Assembly: GCF_041248615.1 (NCBI RefSeq)
Contig: NZ_CP158426.1
Source of the DNA: Escherichia coli
Lineage (GTDB): Bacteria; Pseudomonadota; Gammaproteobacteria; Enterobacterales; Enterobacteriaceae
DNA length: 64,000 nucleotides
Direction: 5' to 3' (one strand)
The translations under genes and the position numbers were made by a program. The notes below the pieces were generated by a model. It saw only the letters and a program-made list of their open reading frames with translations, was not told where the DNA came from and ran no database searches. How positions within the stretch are numbered: the stretch's first letter is position 1; every line of letters begins with the position of its first letter. Positions 12,138 through 38,662 of the stretch are shown piece by piece.

Positions 12138-12734
12138 ATGATGCCTGCTGAACCTAAAACCTATAAACGCAAATCAACGCAATTTAAGCCACTAACAGCA
12201 ATGCAGGAGGCTTATTGCCAGTCATACATCAAAACGCCTGAAAACCAGACTCAGGCAGCGATTAACGCAGGATTCTCCCCAAATACAGCGGCAGTTAAAG
12301 CCAGTGTCATGATGCGCGATGAACGCATTCAAAAACGGATTGCCGAGTTGATGGAGGAGCGCAACAAACGAATGCGCGTCAGTGCTGATTACGTTCTCAT
12401 GCGCCTGGTGGAGATCGACCAGATGGACGTGATCGATATCCTCAACGACGATGGGAGCCTTAAACCAATCCGTGAGTGGCCGAAAATCTGGCGCACTACG
12501 CTTAGTGGCTTTGATCTGTCATCGACCATCATGAACATGAACGAGGATTCGATAGAGACAATCCTCAAAAAAATTAAATGGCCTGACAAGGTGAAGAACC
12601 TCGAACTGATTGGTAAGCACGTCGACGTCAACGCATTCAAAGAACGCCTGGATGTTAATGTGAATGTGACAATTGCTGATCGCATAGCGGCAGCCAGGAA
12701 GAGACTGAAAGAACGTCAGGATGGCAATCAGTGA
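12138..12734 (+). CDS. Terminase small subunit
   Basis: LTAMQEAYCQSY...QTQAAINAGFSPNTAAVKAS...RIQKRIAEL resembles small-terminase family signature; track start 12060 lies inside terminator hairpin and is rejected. Confidence 0.75.
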   Translation: MMPAEPKTYKRKSTQFKPLTAMQEAYCQSYIKTPENQTQAAINAGFSPNTAAVKASVMMRDERIQKRIAELMEERNKRMRVSADYVLMRLVEIDQMDVIDILNDDGSLKPIREWPKIWRTTLSGFDLSSTIMNMNEDSIETILKKIKWPDKVKNLELIGKHVDVNAFKERLDVNVNVTIADRIAAARKRLKERQDGNQ

Positions 12735-14206
12735 CAGATACAGCGTTATCTCCTGAAGAGCAGTTAATCGAGGATATTGCAGGGTTCACTCACGATCCGC
12801 TTGGCTATGCCCTCTATGCGTTCCCGTGGGGGGAAGAGGGTACTGAACTGGCACATGCCACCGGTCCACGTCAGTGGCAGGCCGATGCGTTCCGAGAGAT
12901 ACGTGATCACCTGCAGAATCCAGAGACGCGATATCAGCCGCTTATGCTGGCACGTGCTTCTGGTCACGGTATTGGTAAATCCGCATTCATCTCAATGCTG
13001 ATCAACTGGGGCATGTCCACTTGCGAGGATTGTAAGGTCGTGGTGACCGCCAACACCGACAACCAGCTACGAACGAAGACCTGGCCGGAAATTATCAAGT
13101 GGTCGAACCTTGCTATCACGAAAGACTGGTTTACCTGTACCGCTACCGCGATGTACAGCAATGACCCTGGGCACGACAAGCGGTGGCGAGCTGACGCAAT
13201 CCCCTGGTCTGAGCACAACACTGAGGCATTCGCCGGACTACACAACGAGCGCAAACGCATCATCGTGGTATTCGACGAAGCATCCAACATTGCCGATCTG
13301 GTGTGGGAGGTAGCAGAGGGTGCGCTGACGGACGAAGACACTGAGATTATCTGGGTGGCATTCGGAAACCCTACACGTAACACCGGGCGTTTCCGCGAAT
13401 GTTTCCGCAAATATAAACACCGCTGGAAAACTGCGCAGATTGACAGCCGGACGGTGGAAGGCACTAACAAACAGCAGTTGCAGAAATGGGTTGATGACTA
13501 CGGGGAAGACAGCGACTTCGTTAAAATCCGTGTGCGCGGCATATTCCCGGATGCATCTGAATTGCAGTTTATCCCTACCGGCCTTACTGACGAGGCAATG
13601 AAACGGGTGGTAACCGCTGCGCAGGTTGCACATGCTCCGGTGATAATCGGCGTTGACCCGGCATACTCCGGCGTTGATGACGCTGTGATATACCTGCGGC
13701 AGGGGCTGCACAGTAAGGTGCTATGGACTGGTAACAAGACCACCGACGATCTGATTATGGCGAAGCGTATCGCTGACTTTGAAGACCAGTACCAGGCTGA
13801 CGCAGTGTTCATCGACTTCGGTTACGGAACTGGTCTGAAGTCAATCGGTGATGGCTGGGGACGTACATGGCAACTTGTTCCGTTCAGCGGTGCGTCCACT
13901 GACCCGCAGATGCTTAACAAGCGTGGGGAGATGTTCAACTCATGCAAGACATGGCTGAGGCTGGGCGGCATGCTGGATGACCAGGAAACAGCAGACGACC
14001 TGTCGGCGGCAGAGTACAAAGTTCGAGTGGACGGTAAAATCGTTATCGAACCGAAGGAAGATATCAAGGAGCGGCTTGGGCGTTCTCCTGGTAAAGGCGA
14101 TGCGCTACTGCTGACGTTTGCGTTCCCTGTGTCGAAGCGTCTGCGAATTCCCGGGCAGCAGAACCAGCAAGGCAAGGCCATCACAGATTACGATCCATAT
14201 GCTTAA
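12731..14206 (+). CDS. Terminase large subunit
   Basis: 491 aa; Walker A-like ARASGHGIGKS; ATPase and nuclease-type layout; overlaps terS stop. Confidence 0.85.
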   Translation: MTDTALSPEEQLIEDIAGFTHDPLGYALYAFPWGEEGTELAHATGPRQWQADAFREIRDHLQNPETRYQPLMLARASGHGIGKSAFISMLINWGMSTCEDCKVVVTANTDNQLRTKTWPEIIKWSNLAITKDWFTCTATAMYSNDPGHDKRWRADAIPWSEHNTEAFAGLHNERKRIIVVFDEASNIADLVWEVAEGALTDEDTEIIWVAFGNPTRNTGRFRECFRKYKHRWKTAQIDSRTVEGTNKQQLQKWVDDYGEDSDFVKIRVRGIFPDASELQFIPTGLTDEAMKRVVTAAQVAHAPVIIGVDPAYSGVDDAVIYLRQGLHSKVLWTGNKTTDDLIMAKRIADFEDQYQADAVFIDFGYGTGLKSIGDGWGRTWQLVPFSGASTDPQMLNKRGEMFNSCKTWLRLGGMLDDQETADDLSAAEYKVRVDGKIVIEPKEDIKERLGRSPGKGDALLLTFAFPVSKRLRIPGQQNQQGKAITDYDPYA

Positions 14207-14280
14207 TCCGCTGGTGGGGATAATACTGCTGATATCCTCTGGTGAGGATAAAACAAAGCCAGCTCATCGGCTGGCTGTTT

Positions 14281-14292
14281 GTGACATGTCAC
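14281..14292. repeat. 12-bp palindrome GTGACATGTCAC (copy 2 of 3)
   Basis: Exact; 4 bp past stop of minus-strand gene 14297..14653 and directly followed (minus orientation) by hairpin AGCCAGC/GCTGGCT plus T-run. Confidence 0.9.
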
Positions 14293-14296
14293 GGTG

Positions 14297-14653
14297 TTAT
14301 TGCTCGCTTAACTTCTGCTTCAGCAAGTAACCTTCGAGCATCCAGATTTTGTTTACAGCATTCTGCCGGGCAATCTTCCGACCAATTTCTGCATCAAAAT
14401 TTTCCGGACTTGCACAGGCACTCTCTCCGGTGACGGTGAAGCCATTCTTCAGTACCAATACGCAGAAAGTCAGGAGGTCTGTAGATTTATGCGCTGTCCA
14501 TGAATCGCCAACACCCATATTGGCAGCACGAATGCCGTCATAAGCAGTAAAGAAATGCTCTTCAAGAATGATGCTTTCGATATATTGAGGCGTAACGCGC
14601 GGTGCCGTTTTGCCTTTCTCAACGATTTCTTTTTCGATTTGCTGGTCGTTCAT
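14297..14653 (-). CDS. Hypothetical moron protein, antisense to virion genes
   Basis: 118 aa ORF with SD AAGGTGAG upstream of ATG; lies between terL and portal on opposite strand with own terminator; family unknown. Confidence 0.5.
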   Translation of the reverse strand: MNDQQIEKEIVEKGKTAPRVTPQYIESIILEEHFFTAYDGIRAANMGVGDSWTAHKSTDLLTFCVLVLKNGFTVTGESACASPENFDAEIGRKIARQNAVNKIWMLEGYLLKQKLSEQ

Positions 14654-14766
14654 AATCTCACCTTAAAAAAATGCCCGGCGAACCTGGCGAACTGGAAGCA
14701 ATGAGTTATGCCTTCCGTGGCTGTACGGGTTTACAGCATGAAGTCATCGCAATGGCGTCCTGCTGT

Positions 14767-14809
14767 AAAAAAGGGCGGTGATAGTCCTTCAAGGGAAACT
14801 ATCACCGCC
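14767..14809 (-). terminator. Rho-independent terminator downstream of tRNA-Arg
   Basis: 12-bp perfect stem GGCGGTGATAGT/ACTATCACCGCC with A-run on plus strand (T-run on minus). Confidence 0.7.
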
Positions 14810-14852
14810 AAGCCCCTGGAACTTCTGGCATCACGGTCCTTAGGCGTGATTC

Positions 14853-14929
14853 TGGCGTGGCATGCAGGATTCGAACCTGCGACCAACCGCTTAGAAGGCG
14901 GTTGCTCTGTCCGACTGAGCTAATGCCAC
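14853..14929 (-). tRNA. tRNA-Arg (anticodon UCU), phage-encoded
   Basis: 77 nt; reverse complement GTGGCATTAGCTCAGTCGGACAGAGCAACCGCCTTCTAAGCGGTTGGTCGCAGGTTCGAATCCTGCATGCCACGCCA; 7-bp acceptor stem, T-loop GGTTCGAATCC, anticodon loop CTTCTAA, encoded CCA; close to E. coli argU in layout. Confidence 0.85.
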
Positions 14930-15251
14930 AACGCTGAGAGCACTTAGCCTGTTAAGGCGCCACACTTTGTCGCGGCTCCATAAATGCTCTCATCGTTGTA
15001 CCCTCGTCTCTTCCGAGGCGTCACACCGAATCGCCGGGATGGTGAATCCCCGTGCGCGGAATAAAACCGCTCGACTTGCACATTCCGGCTACCTGGTTCG
15101 TTTGCCCGAGCAAGGGAGGGTGCCCCTTAAACGTATCCAGACCGCTATCGGCGCATGTGCCATACACCGTACTGCTCAAAATAAAATCTCACTCCACCTG
15201 TTCAATTTAACGACAGGCCAGTCAGGTTAGTAACCGGAATGAACTCTTTGG

Positions 15252-23534: not shown

Positions 23535-23998
23535 TGATCGATGTTCAAATTATTCCCGCTACCGAAGAGCATCTTCAGATGATTTTGCCGGATGTTCGTC
23601 AGGCTGATATTGACGAACTGTATGCGGTATCGCTGATGACTACCGAAGATGCGCTGCGCGTTGGTCTTCGCACTGCGACTATGGCCTGGTCAGGGTTCGC
23701 GAACGGAGAACTGGTAACCATGTTTGGTGTATCTCCGGCGTCAATGATCGGTGGCAATGGTACGCCCTGGCTGGTAGGAACCAGCCGTATTGAAAAATAT
23801 CAGAAGACATTTCTGCGCCACTGCCGCCCTGTATTGCAGCAGATGCTGGCAGTTTATCCGCGCCTGGAAAACTACGTCGACGAGCGAAACCATGTTGCCA
23901 AAGCATGGCTGCACTGGCTTGGATTCAGGCTTGAAGAAGCCGCGCCTTATGGTGCTCTTGGTCTTAATTTCCACAGATTTCACATGGAGAGAAAATAA
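23534..23998 (+). CDS. Hypothetical virion protein
   Basis: 154 aa, overlapping start/stop with neighbours. Confidence 0.4.
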   Translation: MIDVQIIPATEEHLQMILPDVRQADIDELYAVSLMTTEDALRVGLRTATMAWSGFANGELVTMFGVSPASMIGGNGTPWLVGTSRIEKYQKTFLRHCRPVLQQMLAVYPRLENYVDERNHVAKAWLHWLGFRLEEAAPYGALGLNFHRFHMERK

Positions 23999-24543
23999 TG
24001 TGCGATCCGGTTATTGCTGGTGGCGCAATGCTCGCCATGAGTGGCATTCAGGCATACACCCAGTACCAACAGGGAAAGTATGCCTCGAAGGTTGCAGAAG
24101 CGAACGCAGATATAGCCACAGCTCAGGCAAATGATGCAATAAACAGAGGTAACGCTGAAGCTGAGCAACGGCGCAGAGAGACCCGGCAGCGGCTTGGTAC
24201 TCAAGCGGCGACAATGGGGGCGACCGGCGCCGATTTATCTACCGGTAACGCGCTGGATATATTTGGCGACACTGCCCAGTTTGGCGCTCTTGATTCGCTG
24301 ACGACGGTGAATAACGCGCAACGCGAGGCTTACGGTTATCAGGTTCAGGCTGCCAACTATAAAGCAGAAGCCAGTTCAGCCCGTAAACAGGGGAATGTGG
24401 GAGCAGCAACAACATTGCTCACTGCGCCTCTGAAGGCATACGGTGCGTACCAGATGTTTGGTGGGACGTGGAGTCCGTTTACTCAAAGCACTCCTGCGCC
24501 AATCGGGGCAGCAGCAGGAACCAGATTACCCGGAGGATTATAA
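23998..24543 (+). CDS. Putative internal virion protein (small, Ala/Gln-rich)
   Basis: 181 aa, N-terminal hydrophobic segment; position like T7 gp14. Confidence 0.45.
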   Translation: MCDPVIAGGAMLAMSGIQAYTQYQQGKYASKVAEANADIATAQANDAINRGNAEAEQRRRETRQRLGTQAATMGATGADLSTGNALDIFGDTAQFGALDSLTTVNNAQREAYGYQVQAANYKAEASSARKQGNVGAATTLLTAPLKAYGAYQMFGGTWSPFTQSTPAPIGAAAGTRLPGGL

Positions 24544-27056
24544 TGCCAGTCGTACCAACAGTATCCGGACGTCAGGTTGAGAGCCGTGGAGTTCAGTCAG
24601 CAGGCTTGCAGACGTTTTCTCAGCCAGGTATTGGTGATGCTTTTGTTCGGGCAGGGGCAGAGGCTATTGATGTTTTTGGTCAGGCAAAACAGCGTGCCAA
24701 TATCGCTCTGGCTCAGGAGGCATCTCTTAACCTCAGTCAGATAAGCAGCGATCTGCTGAATAACCCTGAAACAGGTTTGCTTAACCTGAAAGGGAAAAAT
24801 GCTATTGGAAAAGGTCAGGAGTATACGCAGCAGTTTGATGCTCGGGCCGAACAACTGGCTATGTCGCTGCCGGATGAACAGGCTCGTAATGCTTTCATGC
24901 AGCAGGCGCAGCAGCAGCGCATTCAGTTCACTACGCAGGCAGGGCGGCACGAGATAGGGCAAATAAATGCCTACGAAGAAGGCCAGTTTCAGGCTACGCT
25001 GCTGAACAATGGTAAAAATGCCGCAGCATTGTATGGCGACAACGCCGCATACGTATTGGCTAATAAGCAAACTTTCCAGCAAATTGAGGATTACGGCATT
25101 GCACATGGCTGGAGTGACGAGCAAATCCAGGCCAAGAAAATCGAGTTTAAAGAGAAGGTTGCTGATGCCGCATTGTCCCAGTGGTCGGCAAACAATGCGA
25201 CCGCATTCATCCAAAGTAATGGCGAGTTAAGTGATACTGCTGCTGGAGCTCGCCGTGCTGTAGCAGATAGTGACTCTTCCGAGCGTGCCCGTGGCATACG
25301 CAACAATAACCCAGGAAATCTCGAATACAGCAAAACTAATCCGTGGGTAGGCCAGACCGGTGATGATGGTCGATTTGCTAAATTCGAAACACCTGAACAC
25401 GGGATTCGTGCATTAGGGCGGAACCTGATGTCGTATCAGAGGCAGGGTATTGATACCGTCAGCGAGATAATTAATCGCTGGGCACCGCCTACTGATAAAA
25501 ATGACACTATGTCGTATATCAAAGCAGTGTGCGAACAACTTGGCGTTTCTGCTGATGAGCCTCTCGATGCATCTAATCCTGATACCCTGAAGGCGCTTTG
25601 TGCAGCCATTATCCATCATGAGAACGGTAGCCAGCCATACAGTGATCAGCAGTTAACTGCTGGTGTCAGTGCAGCACTTGGTTTATCAACAATTCCAACC
25701 AACACCAAACGCTATACCGGTAATGCAGCATTCGATGCGGCATCTCCTGAGGCGCAGGCAAGTTTTATGCGACAGGCGGATCAACTGCGTCGGCAGCAGC
25801 AGGCTGAATATAAAACGATGATTGACAGCCAGGTTCGCGATGCGACAGCTGCGTATATGCGTGGCGTTGAATTTCCTAACCCACCTGGTGAGGCTGATTT
25901 TATTGCAGCTTATGGAGTAAGAGAAGGAAACCTGCGATATACCGAGTTCAGAAATACGCAAATCGCCGGACAGTATATAGGCTCTTTCCGCAACATGCCG
26001 ACAAGCAGCATTACAGCATATGTTGAGCAATTACGCCCGGATACTGGTGAGACAGGGGAGGGTTATGCGGCACGAGCCGCTCTTTATGACAACGTTGTGT
26101 CGGCTGCAAGTCAGGTGATAAAGCAGCGACAGGCTGATCCTGTACAGTTCTCTCTTGCCGCCGGACAGGCAAAGCCTATCGACATGAGCAATAAGGATAA
26201 CTTTGGACAGAGCGTTGCCTTGCGTGCTGCTCAGGTCAGTGACCTTGCTAAGTCATATGGCACTCCACTGACGTTCTTTTCCAAAGACGAGGCCAATCAG
26301 ATCGGTGTTTTCTTTCGTGATGCGCCCGTTTCCCAACAGGCAGCATATCTCGATACCATCAGGCAGAGCACTGGTGGTGGGCAGGTGTATATGTCAGCAC
26401 TACAGCAGATCAGTGCCAACGCTCCATCTGCTGCCGTTGCCGGGATACTGATGGATAAGCCAGGTGGTATTTTGGCAGAAAAAAACTGGTTTAATCCGGA
26501 TGTTTCCGTGTCTCCTGAAACCGCTGCGCAGACAATTCTTGCTGGCGCGGCGGCTCGTAAAGGTACTGATGATGCGAAAGGTATTCCGATGCCTAAAGAT
26601 GCTGATCTTCGCCTTGAGTTTTCTGACATGGTGAAGGATGCATTTGCTGGTGACGCTCAGGGGGCATCAATGGCATACGAGATCGCAAAGGATTATTACG
26701 CTGGTGTGATGGCGAAAAAAGGCGTGGTATCAGGCGAAATTGACAATGATGTCTGGAAACAGGCTGTTAACGTAGCTACAGGTGGCGTGCATGACTATAA
26801 CGGAATGGGGAATGTCCTTTTGCCGTGGGGAATGTCTGCAGAGCAATTCGATAAGCAGGTTAATCAGGTTTGGAATGAACAAGTTGTCGGCTCCGGGATA
26901 AAAACACCGCCTGGTCAGTATGGTTTGCAAAGTTACGGCGATAGTCAGTATCTGGTGAAACTTGGTACTGGTTATCTGCTGAAAGATGATGGTTCTCCCG
27001 TTGTTCTTAATCTGACACAGAAGCGTCAGAGATTCTCCGGAGATATTCCGCAATGA
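24543..27056 (+). CDS. Large internal virion / ejection protein, possible cell-wall hydrolase region
   Basis: ATG 24543 overlaps upstream stop (track start 24468 rejected); conserved GIRNNNPGNLEY segment. Confidence 0.5.
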   Translation: MPVVPTVSGRQVESRGVQSAGLQTFSQPGIGDAFVRAGAEAIDVFGQAKQRANIALAQEASLNLSQISSDLLNNPETGLLNLKGKNAIGKGQEYTQQFDARAEQLAMSLPDEQARNAFMQQAQQQRIQFTTQAGRHEIGQINAYEEGQFQATLLNNGKNAAALYGDNAAYVLANKQTFQQIEDYGIAHGWSDEQIQAKKIEFKEKVADAALSQWSANNATAFIQSNGELSDTAAGARRAVADSDSSERARGIRNNNPGNLEYSKTNPWVGQTGDDGRFAKFETPEHGIRALGRNLMSYQRQGIDTVSEIINRWAPPTDKNDTMSYIKAVCEQLGVSADEPLDASNPDTLKALCAAIIHHENGSQPYSDQQLTAGVSAALGLSTIPTNTKRYTGNAAFDAASPEAQASFMRQADQLRRQQQAEYKTMIDSQVRDATAAYMRGVEFPNPPGEADFIAAYGVREGNLRYTEFRNTQIAGQYIGSFRNMPTSSITAYVEQLRPDTGETGEGYAARAALYDNVVSAASQVIKQRQADPVQFSLAAGQAKPIDMSNKDNFGQSVALRAAQVSDLAKSYGTPLTFFSKDEANQIGVFFRDAPVSQQAAYLDTIRQSTGGGQVYMSALQQISANAPSAAVAGILMDKPGGILAEKNWFNPDVSVSPETAAQTILAGAAARKGTDDAKGIPMPKDADLRLEFSDMVKDAFAGDAQGASMAYEIAKDYYAGVMAKKGVVSGEIDNDVWKQAVNVATGGVHDYNGMGNVLLPWGMSAEQFDKQVNQVWNEQVVGSGIKTPPGQYGLQSYGDSQYLVKLGTGYLLKDDGSPVVLNLTQKRQRFSGDIPQ

Positions 27057-28855
27057 GTTACTTTGGCCTTAATCCAGTAAACCAGAATCAGCAGCTTGAC
27101 GAAGCAGCATCAAATCCAGCTGGCTTTAACAGCGATGTTGGTTTTTTCGACAATGCTGTAGGAGCGGCATTGTCTGGTTTGTACTCCGGGCTGGTGGCAA
27201 AGCCAGATCAGTTGCTATGGGCAGGGATGGATAAAATCGTATCCCCGATTGCTCAGTTTGTTAACGAAAACACCTCGCTCAATGACACTTCAGTTTCATA
27301 CATTGCTGAGCAGAGAAAACTAGCAGAGCAGCAGGTTAAGCGGCTGACGCCTGATGCCGCGACAACCGGAACCGCCGGGCAGGTTCTTTATGGGTTGTTC
27401 GATATGGGCGGGCAGGCTGTTGTCGGTACAACGCTCGGTGGTCCTGTCGGAGGTGCAGCGGCGGTAACTTCGCTACAGGGTTTTTCTGAGTTTGAACGGC
27501 TGACAGCACAGGGTGTTGATTTCAGGACGGCGAAGGAAGCGGGATTAGTGCAGGGCATTACTGCTGGTGCCGGAACACTGATCCCTATGAGCCTCGGGTT
27601 ACGTGCTGGTGGTGCGCTGGCGGAAGGTGTGGCGGCTCAGCTTGCGCGGACGGGTGAAAGTTCAGTGCGACGCGCCGCAGCAACAGCAGTACGTGCAACG
27701 CCAGATATTGCCTATGCCGCAGGTACAAATATTGCGTTCGGTATGGCACAGCGTGGGCTTACTGCAAAAACGCTTCGTGATGGTGGCTATAGCGAAATGG
27801 CTAACCAGTATGATGTGTTGGATCGACAGGCAATTGCTATTGATGCTGTTCTTGGGGTGGCGTTTGGTGGTGTCGGCAGATTTATTAACTCTCGCGGCGA
27901 GTCTACAAGCGCACCAAATTTTTCACCAGTTGATATTGATGCTGCACTGGCGGCGAATGCCGCTCATCATGCTGAAATTGATATTGCTCCCGGCGTTCCG
28001 ATCAACGTGCTTTCGCGTAATTCGCACATTCAGGCTCTGCGAAAAGCCATGTCTGATGTTAGCCAGGGGAGACCTGTAGACGTTGCCAGCATTGTTGAGT
28101 CTGCATCTTTCAGTGAAATTCCTGGGCCCAAGAGTCTGCTGTCTCAGGCAGTTAATGAGGCTCTGTCATCTGTAGATGATGGAGTAACGGCGCGCGCTAT
28201 AGAAAATCGGTTGCTTGAAGAACAGGCCGCGCAGCTTTTGTCGCGTGGCGATAGACAGGTTTACCAGTCTGAAATCGCTAATAGCCAACGAATTATTGAA
28301 AATCTCACTGAACAGCGCGCACAAATTCTTGCAGAAGAGCCAACCGGGAGCGGTAAGGCTTTATCTCGTGCTCGATCAGATAAACAGGCCAGACTTCGCG
28401 ATATTGATCAACGAATCCGGCAGGCACAAGAACGCCTGGAATTTTCCCGTAACGCGTTGGCACCGCACGAGCCTGGCGGTCAGTTTTTTGAAGCTCGAGC
28501 AGAACTGGCACGACGACAGCAGGCAGAAAGTGAACTTAATGCTCAGGCTGTTTCATTCTATAAAACAGCAGAGGTCAGGACGCCAGACGAAGTAGCTCCT
28601 TTTGAGCCCGGTAAGATATTGCAACAGACAGAACAAAAAATGATGGCAGATCCGGCAGGAGATATTGATCTGCGTATAGCTGAAGACTCGCTGCTTGAAT
28701 CTCCGGACATGATAATCACCGTGCTGGATGATGATGGTAATCCACAATCGCGCAGTGCGCGTGAAGTACTGGATGAAGCGAACAGGGAAAGTGAGCAGGC
28801 AATACAGGATTCCAGCCTGTTTGATGTCGCTGTGGCGTGTTTCTTGAGAGGTTAA
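27053..28855 (+). CDS. Internal virion / ejection protein
   Basis: 600 aa, Ala/Gly-rich, overlapping upstream stop. Confidence 0.5.
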   Translation: MSYFGLNPVNQNQQLDEAASNPAGFNSDVGFFDNAVGAALSGLYSGLVAKPDQLLWAGMDKIVSPIAQFVNENTSLNDTSVSYIAEQRKLAEQQVKRLTPDAATTGTAGQVLYGLFDMGGQAVVGTTLGGPVGGAAAVTSLQGFSEFERLTAQGVDFRTAKEAGLVQGITAGAGTLIPMSLGLRAGGALAEGVAAQLARTGESSVRRAAATAVRATPDIAYAAGTNIAFGMAQRGLTAKTLRDGGYSEMANQYDVLDRQAIAIDAVLGVAFGGVGRFINSRGESTSAPNFSPVDIDAALAANAAHHAEIDIAPGVPINVLSRNSHIQALRKAMSDVSQGRPVDVASIVESASFSEIPGPKSLLSQAVNEALSSVDDGVTARAIENRLLEEQAAQLLSRGDRQVYQSEIANSQRIIENLTEQRAQILAEEPTGSGKALSRARSDKQARLRDIDQRIRQAQERLEFSRNALAPHEPGGQFFEARAELARRQQAESELNAQAVSFYKTAEVRTPDEVAPFEPGKILQQTEQKMMADPAGDIDLRIAEDSLLESPDMIITVLDDDGNPQSRSAREVLDEANRESEQAIQDSSLFDVAVACFLRG

Positions 28856-28860
28856 ATTAA

Positions 28861-31335
28861 ATGAGACAGGAATGTATACAAGCGGTCCAGCAGGCGGCGC
28901 AGCGCACGTTAACGGCGCGAGAAATACAGAACATTGAAGACCGCATTTATCGAAATATGCGCTCCATTGCTCGTGATGACCCGATGTCGTGGAGACAACT
29001 TTCCGAATCAGAGCGGCTATATCGTGCAGCACAATTGGCATCTGAGGAATTACAGCGAGAAGCGGCATTAAAGAAACGTCGTGTGGCCCTCACTATAGCC
29101 GCACGTCAGAGATTGGATAAATTTATCAATAGCTATCAAGGGGCTGATGGGAAACTTGGCGCTCTTAACCGTACTATTGCTTTTAATGCAGACGGTAAAT
29201 CGAATTTCCTCTCTGTTGAGTCCAGAACAAAAGCCACTCGTGATTATGCATTGAGTCAATTGCAGGAGGCATTCGAAGCAGTTGATCCTCGCTTTTTTGG
29301 TCTGTTTGAAGATGAAGCGGGCGTACGTGACCTGGTATATGAAATGCGAGGGCAAAATACTGGCAATTCTAAAGCAAGAAAAGGTGCTAAGGCGTGGAGA
29401 GAAGTGACAGATCTACTGCGCCGCCGGTTTAATGATGCTGGTGGGGACATTGGCTATCTCGAAAACTGGGGGATCCCTCAGCATCATTCTATGGAAAAGG
29501 TTGGGGCGGTATCAAAGGATAAGTGGGTTAGCGATGTTATAGGTAAGCTGGATCGCAAATATTATATCCGAGCCGATGGACAACTGATGAACGATGCCGA
29601 GTTGTCTGCATTTCTTGGAGAGGCTTATAACACGATCGCTACTGGTGGGCTGAATAAGCTTACTGATACCGGAATGCGAATTTCCGGCGCACGTGCTAAC
29701 CGTGGTAATGCATCACGACAGATACATTTCAAAGATGCAGATTCCTATCTGCAATATCAGCAACTTTATGGCGATCGCTCTCTATGGGAAATCATGGTCG
29801 GTCACCTGGAAGGTATCAGTAAAGATATTGCACTGGTGGAAACATATGGCCCAAACCCCGATCATGTTTTCCGCTCTCTTCTTGATCAGGTGAAGGCAGA
29901 AACGGCAACAGCTAACCCGAGTAAAACCGGTAAAGTCGAGCGGCTGGCGAACAACACAGAGAATCTGTACAACTTTATTTCCGGAAAGACACAGCCTGTA
30001 GCGAATCCGCACATCGCGCGATGGTCTGACAATATCCGCAACTGGCTGGTTGCCAGCAGACTCGGATCTGCGTTGCTATCATCGTTCTCTGATCTTGGAA
30101 CCATGTATCTGTCTGCGAAGGTGACCAACCTTCCAATGAACCAGTTATTCCGCAACCAGCTTGAAGCTATGGACCCAACGAACCGTACAGAACTTGCGCG
30201 GGCGCGCCGCGCTGGTCTGGCGATGGAATCTCTACTTGGCAGCGTTAACCGCTGGGCGATGGATAATATGGGGCCGTCAGTGTCTCGTTGGGCGGCAACG
30301 GCGGTAATGCGTGCCAGTGGGCTTACAGCATGGTCAGATGCGCACAAGCGCGCCTATGGCGTAACCATGATGGGAAGCCTGGGAGAAGTAGTGTCACGGA
30401 CACCAGACCTTCGTAGCCTCGATGATTCTGATTTTCGTATCCTGAAAAGCAAAGGGATTACTGACACAGACTGGAGCGTATGGAAGCTGGCGCAACAGGA
30501 GGACTGGGGGAACGGTAATAATACGATGCTGACACCGGAAAGCATTATGCGTATCCCTGATTCAGCAGTTAAACATCTTGGTGAGCCTGAGCGCGTGAAA
30601 TTTGAGGCAATGCGTAAATTGCTAGGTGCCGTAACTGAAGAAGTTGATATGGCTGTTATTACACCGGGAGCTCGTGAGCAACTGATAACCGGTTCTGGTA
30701 TTCAGCGTGGAACATGGAAAGGTGAATTAACGAGAAGTGTTTTCCTGTTTAAATCTTTCCCTATCTCGGTTGTTATGCGTCACTGGTCACGCGCTATGGG
30801 TATGCCGTCTGCTGGTGGGCGTGCGGCATATATTGCGACGTTTATTGCCAGTACGACCATTCTTGGCGCTTTGTCGCAGCAACTTAACGACCTTGCGTCT
30901 GGTCGTAATCCTCGAGAGATGACAGGAGAAGATGCCGCAAAATTCTGGCTTGGTGCTCTACTGAAAGGTGGTGGTCTTGGCCTTTACGGTGACTTTTTAT
31001 TGTCAGATCACACCAGGTACGGAAGCGGCGCGCTGGCGTCGATGCTTGGCCCGGTAGCTGGTCTGGTTGATGACGTGGTGAAGATTGCTCAGGGCATACC
31101 GTTAAATGCTGTGGAAGGGAAGAGTGAGCAGACTGGTGGTGATCTGGTGAAGCTGGGGAAAGGTTTGATGCCTGGTGCGAATCTCTGGTATTTGAAGGCG
31201 GCTCTCGATCACATGATCTTTAACCAGATGCAGGAGTATTTTTCACCAGGCTATTTGCGTAAAATGGAGCAACGTTCGAAGAAAGAGTTTAACCAGACAT
31301 ACTGGTGGCGACCTCAGGATGTCACTCCGCAATAA
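28861..31335 (+). CDS. Large internal virion / ejection protein
   Basis: 824 aa, third of three consecutive large genes before tailspike. Confidence 0.5.
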   Translation: MRQECIQAVQQAAQRTLTAREIQNIEDRIYRNMRSIARDDPMSWRQLSESERLYRAAQLASEELQREAALKKRRVALTIAARQRLDKFINSYQGADGKLGALNRTIAFNADGKSNFLSVESRTKATRDYALSQLQEAFEAVDPRFFGLFEDEAGVRDLVYEMRGQNTGNSKARKGAKAWREVTDLLRRRFNDAGGDIGYLENWGIPQHHSMEKVGAVSKDKWVSDVIGKLDRKYYIRADGQLMNDAELSAFLGEAYNTIATGGLNKLTDTGMRISGARANRGNASRQIHFKDADSYLQYQQLYGDRSLWEIMVGHLEGISKDIALVETYGPNPDHVFRSLLDQVKAETATANPSKTGKVERLANNTENLYNFISGKTQPVANPHIARWSDNIRNWLVASRLGSALLSSFSDLGTMYLSAKVTNLPMNQLFRNQLEAMDPTNRTELARARRAGLAMESLLGSVNRWAMDNMGPSVSRWAATAVMRASGLTAWSDAHKRAYGVTMMGSLGEVVSRTPDLRSLDDSDFRILKSKGITDTDWSVWKLAQQEDWGNGNNTMLTPESIMRIPDSAVKHLGEPERVKFEAMRKLLGAVTEEVDMAVITPGAREQLITGSGIQRGTWKGELTRSVFLFKSFPISVVMRHWSRAMGMPSAGGRAAYIATFIASTTILGALSQQLNDLASGRNPREMTGEDAAKFWLGALLKGGGLGLYGDFLLSDHTRYGSGALASMLGPVAGLVDDVVKIAQGIPLNAVEGKSEQTGGDLVKLGKGLMPGANLWYLKAALDHMIFNQMQEYFSPGYLRKMEQRSKKEFNQTYWWRPQDVTPQ

Positions 31336-31344
31336 GGAAGTGTT

Positions 31345-31518
31345 GTGTTTTTAATTATTTTGAGTGTAATAATTTCTGGTGGATTGTTATTTATTGACCA
31401 CTACAAATATTTTCTTAACCCTCAGACTCAAGCTATTTGCTGGTTCATCTTTGTTGTGCAGGGAGTAGTTCTTGTTGCAAGCCTTATTGAGGGGAGGCCT
31501 CTTATTTTTACTGGGTAA
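31345..31518 (+). CDS. Possible small hydrophobic protein (57 aa)
   Basis: GTG 31345 with SD AAGGA 5 nt upstream; hydrophobic translation; below track threshold. Confidence 0.3.
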   Translation: MFLIILSVIISGGLLFIDHYKYFLNPQTQAICWFIFVVQGVVLVASLIEGRPLIFTG

Positions 31519-34344: not shown

Positions 34345-36927
34345 ATGACGGTCTCAACCGAAGTTGACCACAACGAATACACCGGTAACGGAGTTACGAC
34401 ATCGTTTCCGTATACTTTCCGCATTTTCAAAAAATCCGACCTGGTTGTTCAGGTGTCTGACCTGAACGGGAACGTAACAGAATTGGTTCTGGATACCGGT
34501 TATACAGTAACTGGAGCTGGCACTTATAGTGGCGGTTCTGTGGTTCTTCCGTCTCCGCTTGCTACTGGATGGAGAATTACGATAGATCGTGTGCTTGATG
34601 TAGTACAGGAGACAGATCTTCGCAATCAGGGAAAGTTTTTTCCCGAAGTGCATGAAGATGCCTTTGACTACCTGACGATGCTGATCCAGCAATGTTTTGG
34701 GTGGTTCAGACGTGCATTGATGAAACCATCTTTGCTTGCAAAATATTACGATGCAAAGCAAAACAGAATTTCTAACCTTGCAGATCCATCACTTGAGCAG
34801 GACGCTGTAAATAATCGCTCAATGCGTAATTATGTCGATGCTGCAATCGCCGGAGTTGTTGGTGGTTTTGGTTGGTTTATTCAGTATGGTTCTGGGGCAG
34901 TATACAGAACGTTCCAGGATAAGATGCGTGACGTTTATAATGTTAAAGATTATGGGGCGAAAGGTGACAATATTAACGATGATACGCTAGCATTTATTGC
35001 AGCAGCAAATGCTCTCGGAGAGGGCGGAAAGTTATATATTCCAACAGGAACATACAATTTAACTGGTCCAGTTAATATACCACCAGTGAATATGTGCGGC
35101 GATGGGCAGGGTGAAACAGTTATTGTGTTTGACAATACCACATCACCAAAAGACGGCTTTGTTTTCGCTGCGCCAACTAAATATGATATTGAATTTGGTT
35201 TAAGTCACCTTACAGTTAAAAGAAAAGGCGGGAATGGAGCTAATGCTATATATACCCCAAGAGGTGTCGGGCTTAACCATCTAAGACCAAAACCAACATT
35301 TAGATTTTTATCTTTCTGTTCTGAAACTGCAAATATTGATTCTGATGAATTCGCTCAGAAATACGGCTGGGAATGGTCTTTTAACTGTGGTGATAGTTGG
35401 CAGTTCACAATCGAACGCATTGATGCTGTTGGATGTTATCAGATAGCCAAAAGTTATAATGAACAGTTCCTTGATGGATTCATTCGCACCGCTCCAGAAG
35501 AGGGGATTTTATCAATGCGTGTGAGTGATATCACAACGCATAATGTTGCAAATTTTTTTGAAATTAAGCAGAAGACATATTTTACATTGCTTAATATTGA
35601 TGCCGCCAAGGCATTACGAGGCATTTACGACGCTGATGATCGTATATTTGAAACGAATCGTTATGCTTATGGTGAATGTATATGCACAAATGTTGGTATT
35701 AATGCCCAACTTGAACCAGTACGGCTGGATAACAGATTCCTGCTCATCATGAATGGTATGTTTATTCACCGCGCAGCAAAAGGTTACGATCATGGTCTGG
35801 AATGGGTTGGTCTTAAGCTTAGTCGTGCTCGCGTGTGTTCATTCCAGGGAATTGAGATCGGCACTGCCAGAGGGTATTCAGGGACTAAGAAAGGGATTGT
35901 TCTTGACGCCGGTGATGCAAATAACTTTACCAATGTAACTTTTGGTTTGCTTGATGTGTGCGCACAGATTGGCGATTCCAATTCACAGTATGGTGCCAAC
36001 TTTGCAACATGCTTTAATAATGTGAGCATTAATGCTGACACCGTATTGTTATTCGATTTGCAGCTATGCAGAAATTTCCATTGTGATGGATACGGAGCAT
36101 CTTCTGCCTACACTCTTCAGCAATTCCATAGGAACAGTGATGACACAAGCAATACTTATACATTTAGTAATGTAGGTAAACACAATCTCTACACTGACAA
36201 CTCGCTGTACCTACATAATTCTGCTTCGCTGGAGAACGGGAAGAATATACGTATTGATACACGAAACGGATTATCTGTTAGCACTCAAGCAGATACTGGT
36301 TCCGCAGGAAATAACTTCCTTATAATTCGTAGGACTGGTGTTGATATAGACAGTTTTGAGTTAAGGACTCGCAGTACAGCAGGTGCATATACATATATTA
36401 ATACACCTGAAACTCATTTTTCTGGCCTTATAAAACCAACTGTTGATAATGTTAACTCAAACGGAACATCAGCATTTCGATGGTCACAGGTATACGCTGG
36501 TACTGGCAGTATCAACACGTCGAATGAAGAGCTGAAATTGCGTATTGAGGCTGACGAGAAAACAACAGAATCAGAGCGTCTTGCTGCGCTTGAAATAAAG
36601 GAAAATATCTGGAGGTTTAAATTTAAAGATGCAGTAAAGATCAAGAGTGATGGCGCTCGGATTCATTTCGGTGTTGGTGCACAAACTGTAGGTAATATTC
36701 TCAGAAAATACGGTCTTGACCCTAATAACTATGCGTTCTGGTGTTATGATGAATGGGATGATATTTATGCTCCAGAAGTATTGATTAGGAGTGTTAAAAA
36801 CAATGAAACAGGAGAGTGGTACGACGAGGAATATTACACAGGAAGGCAGATTATTATTAAACCTGCTGGCTATCAGTATGGTATCAGATACGAGGAACTT
36901 CTGATGTTTATTCTTATGTTTATTTAA
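34345..36927 (+). CDS. Tailspike / tail fibre protein with conserved N-terminal attachment domain and AT-rich exchangeable distal part
   Basis: 860 aa; N-terminal ~190 aa at phage-typical GC, remainder AT-rich; Gly/Asn-rich beta-helix-like repeats; C-terminal segment possibly a chaperone-like domain. Confidence 0.7.
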   Translation: MTVSTEVDHNEYTGNGVTTSFPYTFRIFKKSDLVVQVSDLNGNVTELVLDTGYTVTGAGTYSGGSVVLPSPLATGWRITIDRVLDVVQETDLRNQGKFFPEVHEDAFDYLTMLIQQCFGWFRRALMKPSLLAKYYDAKQNRISNLADPSLEQDAVNNRSMRNYVDAAIAGVVGGFGWFIQYGSGAVYRTFQDKMRDVYNVKDYGAKGDNINDDTLAFIAAANALGEGGKLYIPTGTYNLTGPVNIPPVNMCGDGQGETVIVFDNTTSPKDGFVFAAPTKYDIEFGLSHLTVKRKGGNGANAIYTPRGVGLNHLRPKPTFRFLSFCSETANIDSDEFAQKYGWEWSFNCGDSWQFTIERIDAVGCYQIAKSYNEQFLDGFIRTAPEEGILSMRVSDITTHNVANFFEIKQKTYFTLLNIDAAKALRGIYDADDRIFETNRYAYGECICTNVGINAQLEPVRLDNRFLLIMNGMFIHRAAKGYDHGLEWVGLKLSRARVCSFQGIEIGTARGYSGTKKGIVLDAGDANNFTNVTFGLLDVCAQIGDSNSQYGANFATCFNNVSINADTVLLFDLQLCRNFHCDGYGASSAYTLQQFHRNSDDTSNTYTFSNVGKHNLYTDNSLYLHNSASLENGKNIRIDTRNGLSVSTQADTGSAGNNFLIIRRTGVDIDSFELRTRSTAGAYTYINTPETHFSGLIKPTVDNVNSNGTSAFRWSQVYAGTGSINTSNEELKLRIEADEKTTESERLAALEIKENIWRFKFKDAVKIKSDGARIHFGVGAQTVGNILRKYGLDPNNYAFWCYDEWDDIYAPEVLIRSVKNNETGEWYDEEYYTGRQIIIKPAGYQYGIRYEELLMFILMFI

Positions 36928-37343
36928 AATATAGCGCAGGGATGCGCTATTCAACTATTTTATAAAATTAATAACTATTCATGCGATATAATGTGGCCTC
37001 TTTTATCTTTGCAGAATTAAAAACTATAGAAAATATTTTGTATTATTATAAATGCTTCTGGATCATATTAATCAGTTTGCCATCTATTAGAACTTTGATT
37101 ATTGATGCATCAATTATTTAACATAGTGGTTGTGCGCAACTCCACTAACGATTGAATATAGATTGTTATTTTTGTTTACACTGTCACACAAGAACATCCT
37201 TACCTGTCAATCAACATTATTATTTTTTGATTCCATGATGTTGATTTGTGATGTAAAAAAATACATATTAAACCATATATGGATTGTAATTCGTGGTTAC
37301 AATTCTTGTTGTTTTTTTATGGTGAGATAAAAAAGGTGTTTTA

Positions 37344-37745
37344 ATGTCATTTCAATTAACAGGAGAGTCAATAAATCAATGGCTTAGCCTTGGTTCTCTA
37401 GCAGCGGTGATAGCAGGAGTGCCTCCAGAAGTAGCTCTTGGGTCTTTGTCAGGAGCGGTAATTTTTGTTACCTCTGCTGTAGAGTATCCTGTTCGTCGTC
37501 GTGTACTCTTGTCGATACTCAGCTTTCTTTGTGGTCTTCTCTTTTACAAACCAACTGCATCAATTCTTATAGGCATAGCCAGTCTAATTCCTACCATTAC
37601 TCAGGACTCTTTCGAGAAAGGGATTGTTTTCTCTGCTGGCGCATTTGTGTCAGCAATAGTCGCAGTGCGAATTGGCATCTGGCTCTATCACCATTCCGAT
37701 AATCCACGCGAGTTAATTCCTGGGAGAAAAGACGATGGTAACTAA
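37344..37745 (+). CDS. Putative holin (multi-TM membrane protein)
   Basis: 133 aa, several hydrophobic helices, first gene of lysis cassette. Confidence 0.5.
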   Translation: MSFQLTGESINQWLSLGSLAAVIAGVPPEVALGSLSGAVIFVTSAVEYPVRRRVLLSILSFLCGLLFYKPTASILIGIASLIPTITQDSFEKGIVFSAGAFVSAIVAVRIGIWLYHHSDNPRELIPGRKDDGN

Positions 37746-38043
37746 TGAGCTTGTTTTGCTTATCACCAATGCAGTTATTTGTACTGGCATAGCAATTCGC
37801 GTTGTCACATTCCGGCGTAACGGCTCTCAACACCGAAGGTTGGGAGGCTGGCTTGCTTATTTCCTGATTGTTGCTGCAGCTAGTATTCCTGTTCGTGTCG
37901 TCTATGCAATCTGGTTACGTACGCCAATGGCTGTGGATTTATCTGAGGTCATTATCAACGCTGTCATGCTTGCAGCGGTTATTAAAACGCGCGGTAACGT
38001 CGTGCAGATTTTTAAAATAACGAGGTCTAAACATGGAGATTAA
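37735..38043 (+). CDS. Putative second holin / antiholin
   Basis: 102 aa, three hydrophobic segments, charged C-terminus. Confidence 0.45.
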
Positions 38044-38662
38044 ACAATTCCAGCGAGCTGCTGGTATTAGCGAGGCGCTGGCCGCACGCTGGTTCTCGCA
38101 TATAACTTCTGCGATGAAAGAGTTTGGTATCAGCAAAACCGAAGATCAGGCAATGTTTATTGCTCAGGTCGGGCATGAGTCTGGTGGTTTCACCAGGTTG
38201 CAGGAGAATTTCAACTACAGTGTCAGCGGTCTAGCTAACTTCGTTCGGGCTGGGCGTCTCACTCAGGGGCAGGCTAATGCACTTGGTCGCCGTGCTGGTG
38301 AACCACCATTGCCACTTGAGCGCCAGCGCGCGATCGCAAATCTGGTATACAGCAAACGCATGGGTAACAATGCTCCCGGCGATGGCTGGAATTACCGTGG
38401 GCGCGGGCTTATCCAGATTACCGGTTTGAATAACTATCGTGACTGCGGAAACGGCCTAAAAGTGGACCTGCTGGAGAATCCTGAGCTGTTGACGCAGGGC
38501 GAATACGCGGCTCGTAGCGCGGCGTGGTTCTTCTCCAGCAAAGGCTGCATGAAGTATACCGGCGATATTGCACGTGTAACTTTGATTATCAATGGTGGCA
38601 GGAACGGCATCGACGACCGGAGAGCGCGGTACATCACTGCCAGTAAGGTGCTGGCGGTATGA
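38033..38662 (+). CDS. Endolysin, glycoside hydrolase family 19-like
   Basis: 209 aa; motifs GHESGGF and [15 protein letters not shown]. Confidence 0.75.

Follow-up and report, generated by a model that had tools for sequence, protein, structure and literature searches.

The 64,000-nucleotide stretch of Escherichia coli DNA analyzed here (the window; contig NZ_CP158426.1 of RefSeq assembly GCF_041248615.1) carries a prophage gene at positions 24543-27056 whose 837-amino-acid product is, very probably, an internal virion (ejection) protein of the epsilon15 gp15 type. Judged from sequence comparison and structure modeling, the protein belongs to a phiV10-like temperate podovirus and consists of three parts, the middle one an Enc34-type domain predicted to open the cell wall during DNA delivery. 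Homology, fold, active-site conservation, position in the operon, and the fact that SLT or GH108 domains take the place of this domain in diverged homologues together lead to this reading. A preliminary description of the window had proposed a virion protein with a conserved GIRNNNPGN segment and a possible cell-wall hydrolase; this proposal is supported by matches to the PDB entries 7q47 and 9vvp, by the predicted fold, by the residues W313, Y325 and E360, and by the position of the gene in the ejection block.

The Enc34-type domain and its protein

The gene and the parts of its product are the following.

24543..27056, + strand: coding sequence of 837 amino acids plus stop; orthologue of epsilon15 gp15 and phiV10 p18, with a phrog_992 match over the full length (PHROG)
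24532..24536, + strand: strong Shine-Dalgarno sequence GGAGG, 6 nucleotides before the ATG
24543..25286, + strand: N-terminal module, residues 1-248; in the AlphaFold2 model residues 1-41 are predicted to be disordered (pLDDT, the per-residue confidence, <50) and are followed by long helices
25287..25697, + strand: predicted Enc34-type (PHA02564 / PM2 P5 family) enzymatically active domain, residues 249-385
25290..25355, + strand: family signature segment RGIRNNNPGNLEYSKTNPWVGQ, residues 250-271, at the start of the domain
25479..25481, + strand: codon of W313 (in NRWAPP), aligned by phmmer/HMMER with Trp79 of Enc34
25515..25517, + strand: codon of Y325 (in MSYIKA), aligned by phmmer/HMMER with Tyr95 of Enc34
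25620..25622, + strand: codon of E360 (in HHENGS), aligned by phmmer/HMMER with the proposed catalytic Glu131 of Enc34
25698..27053, + strand: C-terminal module, residues 386-837; mostly helical with a small terminal beta domain, and the widely conserved part of the scaffold

When the protein was compared with the PDB by phmmer, two strong matches were obtained within residues 249-398: 9vvp_L, a 1295-residue protein named 'Gp29' (E=3.9e-38), and 7q47, the endolysin catalytic domain from Hafnia phage Enc34 (E=2.7e-17 over residues 249-367). Both values are far beyond chance, and the conserved segment pointed out in the preliminary description is thus real. With the domain region of about 140 residues as the query, tblastn matched 815 phage records. 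Conservation is concentrated at the expected positions. In an alignment of 35 diverse homologues, 45-69% identical to the query, the G-R-N-N-N-P-G-N residues as well as W313 and E360 were each at least 90% conserved and Y325 was invariant. Of 34 scaffold homologues bearing the domain, all 34 have the Glu and are aromatic where the Trp is expected, and 31 have the Tyr.

The AlphaFold2 model of residues 242-382 reached a pLDDT of 92.5. A Foldseek search with this model returned 7q47 as the top match (template modeling score, TM, 0.84; E=3e-11), and the next match had E>1; 9VVP was absent from the matches of the domain model. The modeled domain is all-helical, like the alpha-lobe of lysozyme, and carries the Trp/Tyr/Glu groove signature of the Enc34 type.

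The PHA02564-family domain of Enc34 lyses E. coli, P. aeruginosa and H. alvei once their outer membranes are permeabilized, has an all-helical fold similar to lysozyme's alpha-lobe and is most likely an N-acetylglucosaminidase (PMC8943055). Its active site, consisting of Glu131 together with Trp79 and Tyr95, was assigned by superposing the structure on enzymes of GH73 and GH23, and the fold is distantly related both to GH23 enzymes (phiKZ gp144 and MltC) and to GH73 (PMC8943055). The corresponding domain of the BSPM4 protein M4Lys (M4LysdeltaTMD) degrades purified peptidoglycan (PMC7143992); within the family, peptidoglycan-degrading activity has been shown only for this construct and for Enc34 ORF39deltaC (PMC8943055, PMC7143992). 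Another family member, the PM2 structural protein P5, has retained the triad (PMC9502842).

Sequence and modeled fold thus both place residues ~249-385 in the Enc34-type muralytic family (PHA02564 / PM2-P5) as a homologous domain. The preliminary description had taken GIRNNNPGN for a catalytic-type segment. It does mark the start of the muralytic domain; however, by alignment RNNNPGN is the signature of the family and its groove, and the residue proposed as catalytic acid, E360 of the HHENG segment, lies some 100 residues further downstream. A further remark, that none of the three large proteins of the block shows any other segment of catalytic appearance, agrees with the results for the 600- and 824-residue products encoded downstream, neither of which gave a sequence match in Pfam, NCBIfam or the PDB.

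The full-length AlphaFold2 model (pLDDT 89.4, predicted TM score 0.68) is divided into four regions: the disordered residues 1-41, a long-helix module to about residue 230, the enzyme domain and the C-terminal module. No transmembrane segment and no signal were found in the sequence. A single open reading frame spans 24543-27056 exactly, from the ATG at 24543-24545 through 837 codons to the stop codon ending at 27056, and in the sequence TAATG this ATG overlaps the preceding gene's stop codon. Identical boundaries are annotated in phiV10 (PhiV10p18, 12543-15056) and in the source chromosome (R2K29_RS07050). A longer, GTG-started reading frame (24468-27056) was set aside as a mechanical maximum only.

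At the nucleotide level the gene is 98-99% identical to its counterparts in phiV10, vB_EcoP_ZX5 and related coliphages (98.4% over the whole gene for phiV10). Its similarity to gene 15 of epsilon15 is about 75% identity across the first 1.5 kb and ends at about nucleotide 1526. The proteins are 60% identical overall, with 76% identity over residues 1-248, 85% in the domain, 80% over residues 386-535 and 22.5% over residues 536-837, which makes the muralytic domain the best conserved region. The gene is therefore mosaic relative to that of epsilon15 gp15, with 76-85% identity up to residue 535 and a C-terminal part of about 300 residues in which it falls to the lowest of these values. The orthologues go by different names. 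In GenBank (AY150271) epsilon15 gp15 is a 'putative lytic transglycosylase' on the basis of HHpred (4anr, SltB), the RefSeq name of the phiV10 orthologue is 'head protein ... similar to structural protein P5 from PM2', and the name given by the annotation pipeline PGAP in the source genome is 'hypothetical protein'.

Most near-identical copies in E. coli prophages are 935 residues long, as in phage PAS61 (OQ921333), and contain a 98-residue insert (including EKLHEQQDQYYVKGG). This insert falls precisely where the N-terminal module meets the muralytic domain (window positions 25284-25290, before ARGIRNNNPGN). It matched no Pfam family, and its only PHROG match was a weak one to phrog_19413, a group of unknown function (E=5e-5).

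Cassette exchange among diverged homologues

When 1.84 billion representative sequences were searched exhaustively with HMMER, 12,725 proteins passed a threshold of E<=1e-3, and 320 also passed E<=1e-30. Many of the matched proteins are 800-1000 residues long, and the part that they share is mainly the C-terminal module. For a census of the domain slot we took the listed representatives of at least 700 residues that have the C-terminal module, 96 proteins in all, and called their domains with ad hoc hidden Markov models. The slot held an Enc34-type domain in 41 proteins, an SLT domain in 28 and a GH108 domain in 16, and nothing recognizable was found in the remaining 11. The median start of the three cassette types lies at residues 235-256. 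For 10 of the 11 empty-slot proteins, Pfam confirms the absence of a cassette; five of the 11 are ~700-760 residues long, i.e., about one cassette shorter.

A similar picture was obtained from the 50-sequence alignment of the scaffold, in which 34 proteins have the RNNNPGN domain and 16 do not. When these 16 and four more were scanned with Pfam, all 20 had either SLT (PF01464) or GH108 (PF05838) at residues ~230-370. Exchange also extends to another protein background, as the 1295-residue gp16 homologues of Kayfunavirus carry the Enc34-type domain at the N-terminus, the position of SLT in T7 gp16. That ejection proteins exchange wall-degrading domains has been described before (PMC8954989). 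Since the slot is filled in about 90% of the diverged homologues by one of three peptidoglycan-cleaving families, its content provides independent evidence for a role in wall cleavage.

A broader generalization is put forward tentatively, as one possibility among others. Proteins of the epsilon15 gp15 type may form a distinct and widespread class of podovirus ejection proteins, in which an N- and C-terminal scaffold frames a hot-swappable mid-chain slot that accepts cassettes of at least three muralytic families (Enc34-type, SLT and GH108), is sometimes empty and in many E. coli prophages is accompanied by the 98-residue module. The Enc34-type cassette would then lead to glucosaminidase-like hydrolysis and not to the lytic-transglycosylase chemistry of T7.

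Proposed role and alternative explanations

Packaging, ejection, timing and bond specificity of the 837-residue protein are what we infer from these comparisons. The protein would be packaged in the capsid with the gp14-like, 600-residue and 824-residue proteins. Once the tailspike has digested the O-antigen and the tail has opened, these proteins would leave through the portal-tail channel and enter the periplasm. There, the middle domain would cut peptidoglycan glycan strands locally, with E360 as the general acid and W313 and Y325 positioning the sugar, and the resulting hole would let the flanking modules and the partner proteins build a trans-envelope conduit for DNA. Epsilon15 gp15 is reportedly present in virions, and the epsilon15 core is said to vanish as a periplasm-spanning tube forms during infection. 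By analogy with the activities proposed for Enc34 and M4Lys, bond cleavage would most likely be hydrolytic and N-acetylglucosaminidase-like. An analogue in genome delivery is the N-terminal peptidoglycan-cleaving domain of T7 gp16 (PMC8954989).

Several points weigh against this interpretation. A Pfam scan at E<=1 and an NCBIfam scan of the 837-residue protein gave no relevant match, and the link to the domain family comes from PDB, PHROG or structure comparison. The catalytic residues of Enc34 derive from superposition and not from mutagenesis (PMC8943055). As to the bond cleaved, the M4Lys data suggested a glucosaminidase together with an endopeptidase (PMC8943055), and the GenBank note for epsilon15 speaks of a transglycosylase. 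Finally, the 11 scaffold homologues without a recognizable muralytic cassette indicate that the activity may be dispensable. An NCBIfam match to AphA was discarded as noise (13 bits against a cut-off of 196). Two statements of the preliminary description do not hold in this light. A domain search without a hydrolase match had been named there as a ground for rejection, and the silence of Pfam and NCBIfam would wrongly have disposed of the muralytic reading; the premise that podoviruses need such an activity was too strong, given the empty slots, the conditional requirement for the T7 gp16 transglycosylase and the P22-like phages that have no such domain (PMC8954989).

The domain could instead be a lytic transglycosylase that yields 1,6-anhydro-MurNAc like the SLT domain of T7 gp16, with the same role and a different chemistry. 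This is unlikely, even though the epsilon15 gp15 note cites the HHpred match to SltB, the fold of Enc34 has distant relatives in GH23 besides GH73, some Kayfunavirus records call the homologous domain a 'peptidoglycan lytic exotransglycosylase', and SLT domains take the same slot in homologues. In contrast to the SLT-bearing scaffold homologues, which the same search readily detects, the 837-residue protein had no Pfam SLT match at E<=1; no SLT structure was among the significant fold matches, and the characterized members of the family point to glucosaminidase activity.

A second question concerns location, since sequence alone does not fix the place of the 837-residue protein in the virion. 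Guichard et al. are said to have once proposed, in 2013, an external location for epsilon15 gp15 from amber-mutant particles. In PMC12391199, gp15 and gp17/16 are named as parts of the 'packaging/injection device' with reference to Guichard et al. We nevertheless consider it improbable that the protein is an external component of the tail tube or hub. The tubular and nozzle roles are already taken, as T7 tail tubular protein A is named in the note on epsilon15 gp11 and the 823-residue product upstream matches the nozzle structure 8ck1; the gene directly follows that of the T7 gp14-family core protein; and in T7-like phages the homologous domains lie in the internal gp16 homologue. Whether external or internal, the protein is virion-borne, and its muralytic role is the same either way.

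We regard it as very unlikely that the domain is a catalytically inactive remnant acting as a peptidoglycan-binding or structural module only. The activity of the 837-residue protein itself is predicted from homology, the 11 of 96 homologues without a cassette would agree with a dispensable function, and the T7 gp16 transglycosylase is only conditionally required (PMC8954989). However, Trp, Tyr and Glu and the whole groove signature are kept in homologues down to 22-30% overall identity, the domain is the most conserved region relative to epsilon15 gp15 (85% vs 22.5% in the C-terminal 300 residues), and the Pfam-checked replacements at the slot come from wall-degrading families (SLT, GH108) and not from binding domains. 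The notion that the 837-residue protein is the endolysin with which the phage lyses its host when the cycle ends, prompted by partial matches to PHROGs labeled 'endolysin' (phrog_1044, phrog_873) and by stand-alone or transmembrane-anchored homologues that are lysis endolysins (Enc34 ORF39, M4Lys and chi gp38), was rejected, because the gene lies in the structural operon, encodes no signal or transmembrane segment and belongs to a prophage whose lysis genes (holin, GH19 endolysin and spanin) form a complete and separate cassette at 37.3-39.1 kb.

Prophage context, significance and comparison with known systems

The window is 100% identical to positions 1440001-1504000 of the E. coli NRZ14408 chromosome (NZ_LT599825.1). 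A phiV10/epsilon15-like (Uetakevirus) prophage extends from before position 1 to ~39.2 kb of the window; it is integrated between guaA and yfgI, with host genes from ~39360. The integrase gene begins just left of the window, which places attL outside it. Around the 837-residue gene, the order of products is a 201-residue adaptor-like protein, the 823-residue tail nozzle (match to PDB 8ck1 'Tail Nozzle', E=3e-216), a 154-residue internal virion protein, the 181-residue gp14-family protein, the 837-residue protein and the 600- and 824-residue proteins. The same order is found in phiV10 and epsilon15. The neighbors that bear on the proposed role are listed below.

23998..24543, + strand: 181-residue virion core protein of the T7 gp14 family (Pfam PF24072, 31.2 bits against a cut-off of 27; also the PGAP name)
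27053..28855, + strand: 600-residue protein, orthologue of epsilon15 gp16, with one hydrophobic stretch at residues 260-278
28861..31335, + strand: 824-residue virion structural protein, orthologue of epsilon15 gp17
38033..38662, + strand: GH19 endolysin for lysis, flanked by holins and a spanin-like gene

The lysis cassette at 37.3-39.1 kb comprises two holins, the GH19 endolysin and the spanin-like gene, and with this enzyme of its own the prophage would not use the 837-residue protein for lysis. In epsilon15-like phages the T7-gp14-family gene is gene 14, followed by genes 15-17. Table 1 of PMC8954989 lists gp11 (229 residues) and gp12 (499 residues) as the ejection proteins of 'Epsilon 15'; this assignment was not used, as the sizes differ from the coordinates in AY150271, where gp11 is adaptor-like with ~201 residues and gp12 is the nozzle with ~825 residues. 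After the 824-residue gene, an open reading frame at 31345-31500 encodes a peptide of ~52 residues (phiV10p21, 'putative integral membrane protein'), two segments of which are strongly hydrophobic. It is possible that this peptide and the 600-residue protein are membrane-inserting parts of the ejection apparatus.

Other features of the prophage include a tRNA-Arg gene (anticodon TCT; 14853-14929, - strand) between the terminase and portal genes. An 860-residue tailspike, 'glycosyl hydrolase family 28-related', is encoded in the region 34345-37344, with the holin genes directly after it. The O-antigen acetyltransferase gene oac, which follows the tail fiber gene in phiV10, is not annotated in this prophage.

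The finding itself is ordinary and largely annotated already in related phages. The muralytic label is attached to the epsilon15 orthologue, the location of the domain in an internal virion protein is given in current annotations among the tblastn-matched phage records, and near-identical sequenced phage proteins, combined with the crystal structure and biochemistry of the family, make the assignment already known. It leaves the current understanding of podovirus infection unchanged. Its practical value lies in an annotation gap: near-identical proteins of E. coli prophages number in the thousands and bear the RefSeq/PGAP name 'hypothetical protein', and the domain has no Pfam or NCBIfam model although a solved and biochemically validated homologue exists. 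In addition, the swap of Enc34-type, SLT and GH108 domains at one slot makes a clean comparative argument for function that could guide the annotation of ejection proteins, and virion-borne muralytic domains are candidate enzybiotics.

When compared with known systems, the gene occupies a T7 gp15-like position immediately downstream of a gp14-family gene. Homology to T7 gp15 was not detected by Pfam or by hhalign with the 50-sequence profile (0.3% probability, E=0.24). In a Foldseek search with the full model, T7 gp15 chains came next after 7q47 (probability 0.91-0.93), as weak matches with TM scores of only 0.15-0.19 that serve as no more than a lead. A functional analogue is the N-terminal SLT domain (GH23) of T7 gp16, which likewise cleaves peptidoglycan and is borne by one of the internal ejection proteins of a podovirus. 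Its sequence family is a different one, and its place is the N-terminus of the third ejection protein, which reaches the inner membrane, whereas in the 837-residue protein the domain is mid-chain and the gene comes directly after that for gp14; the chemistry probably differs as well (lyase vs hydrolase). Gp35 of K1E and K1-5 is, by description, likewise a gp15-position protein that bears the muralytic domain, here with lysozyme activity, in place of gp16 (PMC8954989), but differs in enzyme family and in domain position.

Sequence relatives of the domain occur in different settings. Epsilon15 gp15 and PhiV10p18 are orthologues of the whole protein, and their annotations disagree as described above. 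The gp16 homologues of Kayfunavirus ('internal virion protein with endolysin domain') share the Enc34-type domain at 52-56% identity. In these gp16-type proteins it lies at residues ~3-146, and the remainder of the chain is without similarity to the 837-residue protein; their length of 1295 residues equals that of 9vvp chain L. In contrast, Enc34 ORF39, BSPM4 M4Lys and PM2 P5 are small proteins of ~140-250 residues that are stand-alone or have a C-terminal transmembrane anchor. Enc34 and M4Lys act at lysis, whereas the 837-residue protein, with its domain in the middle of a soluble virion chain, would act at entry.

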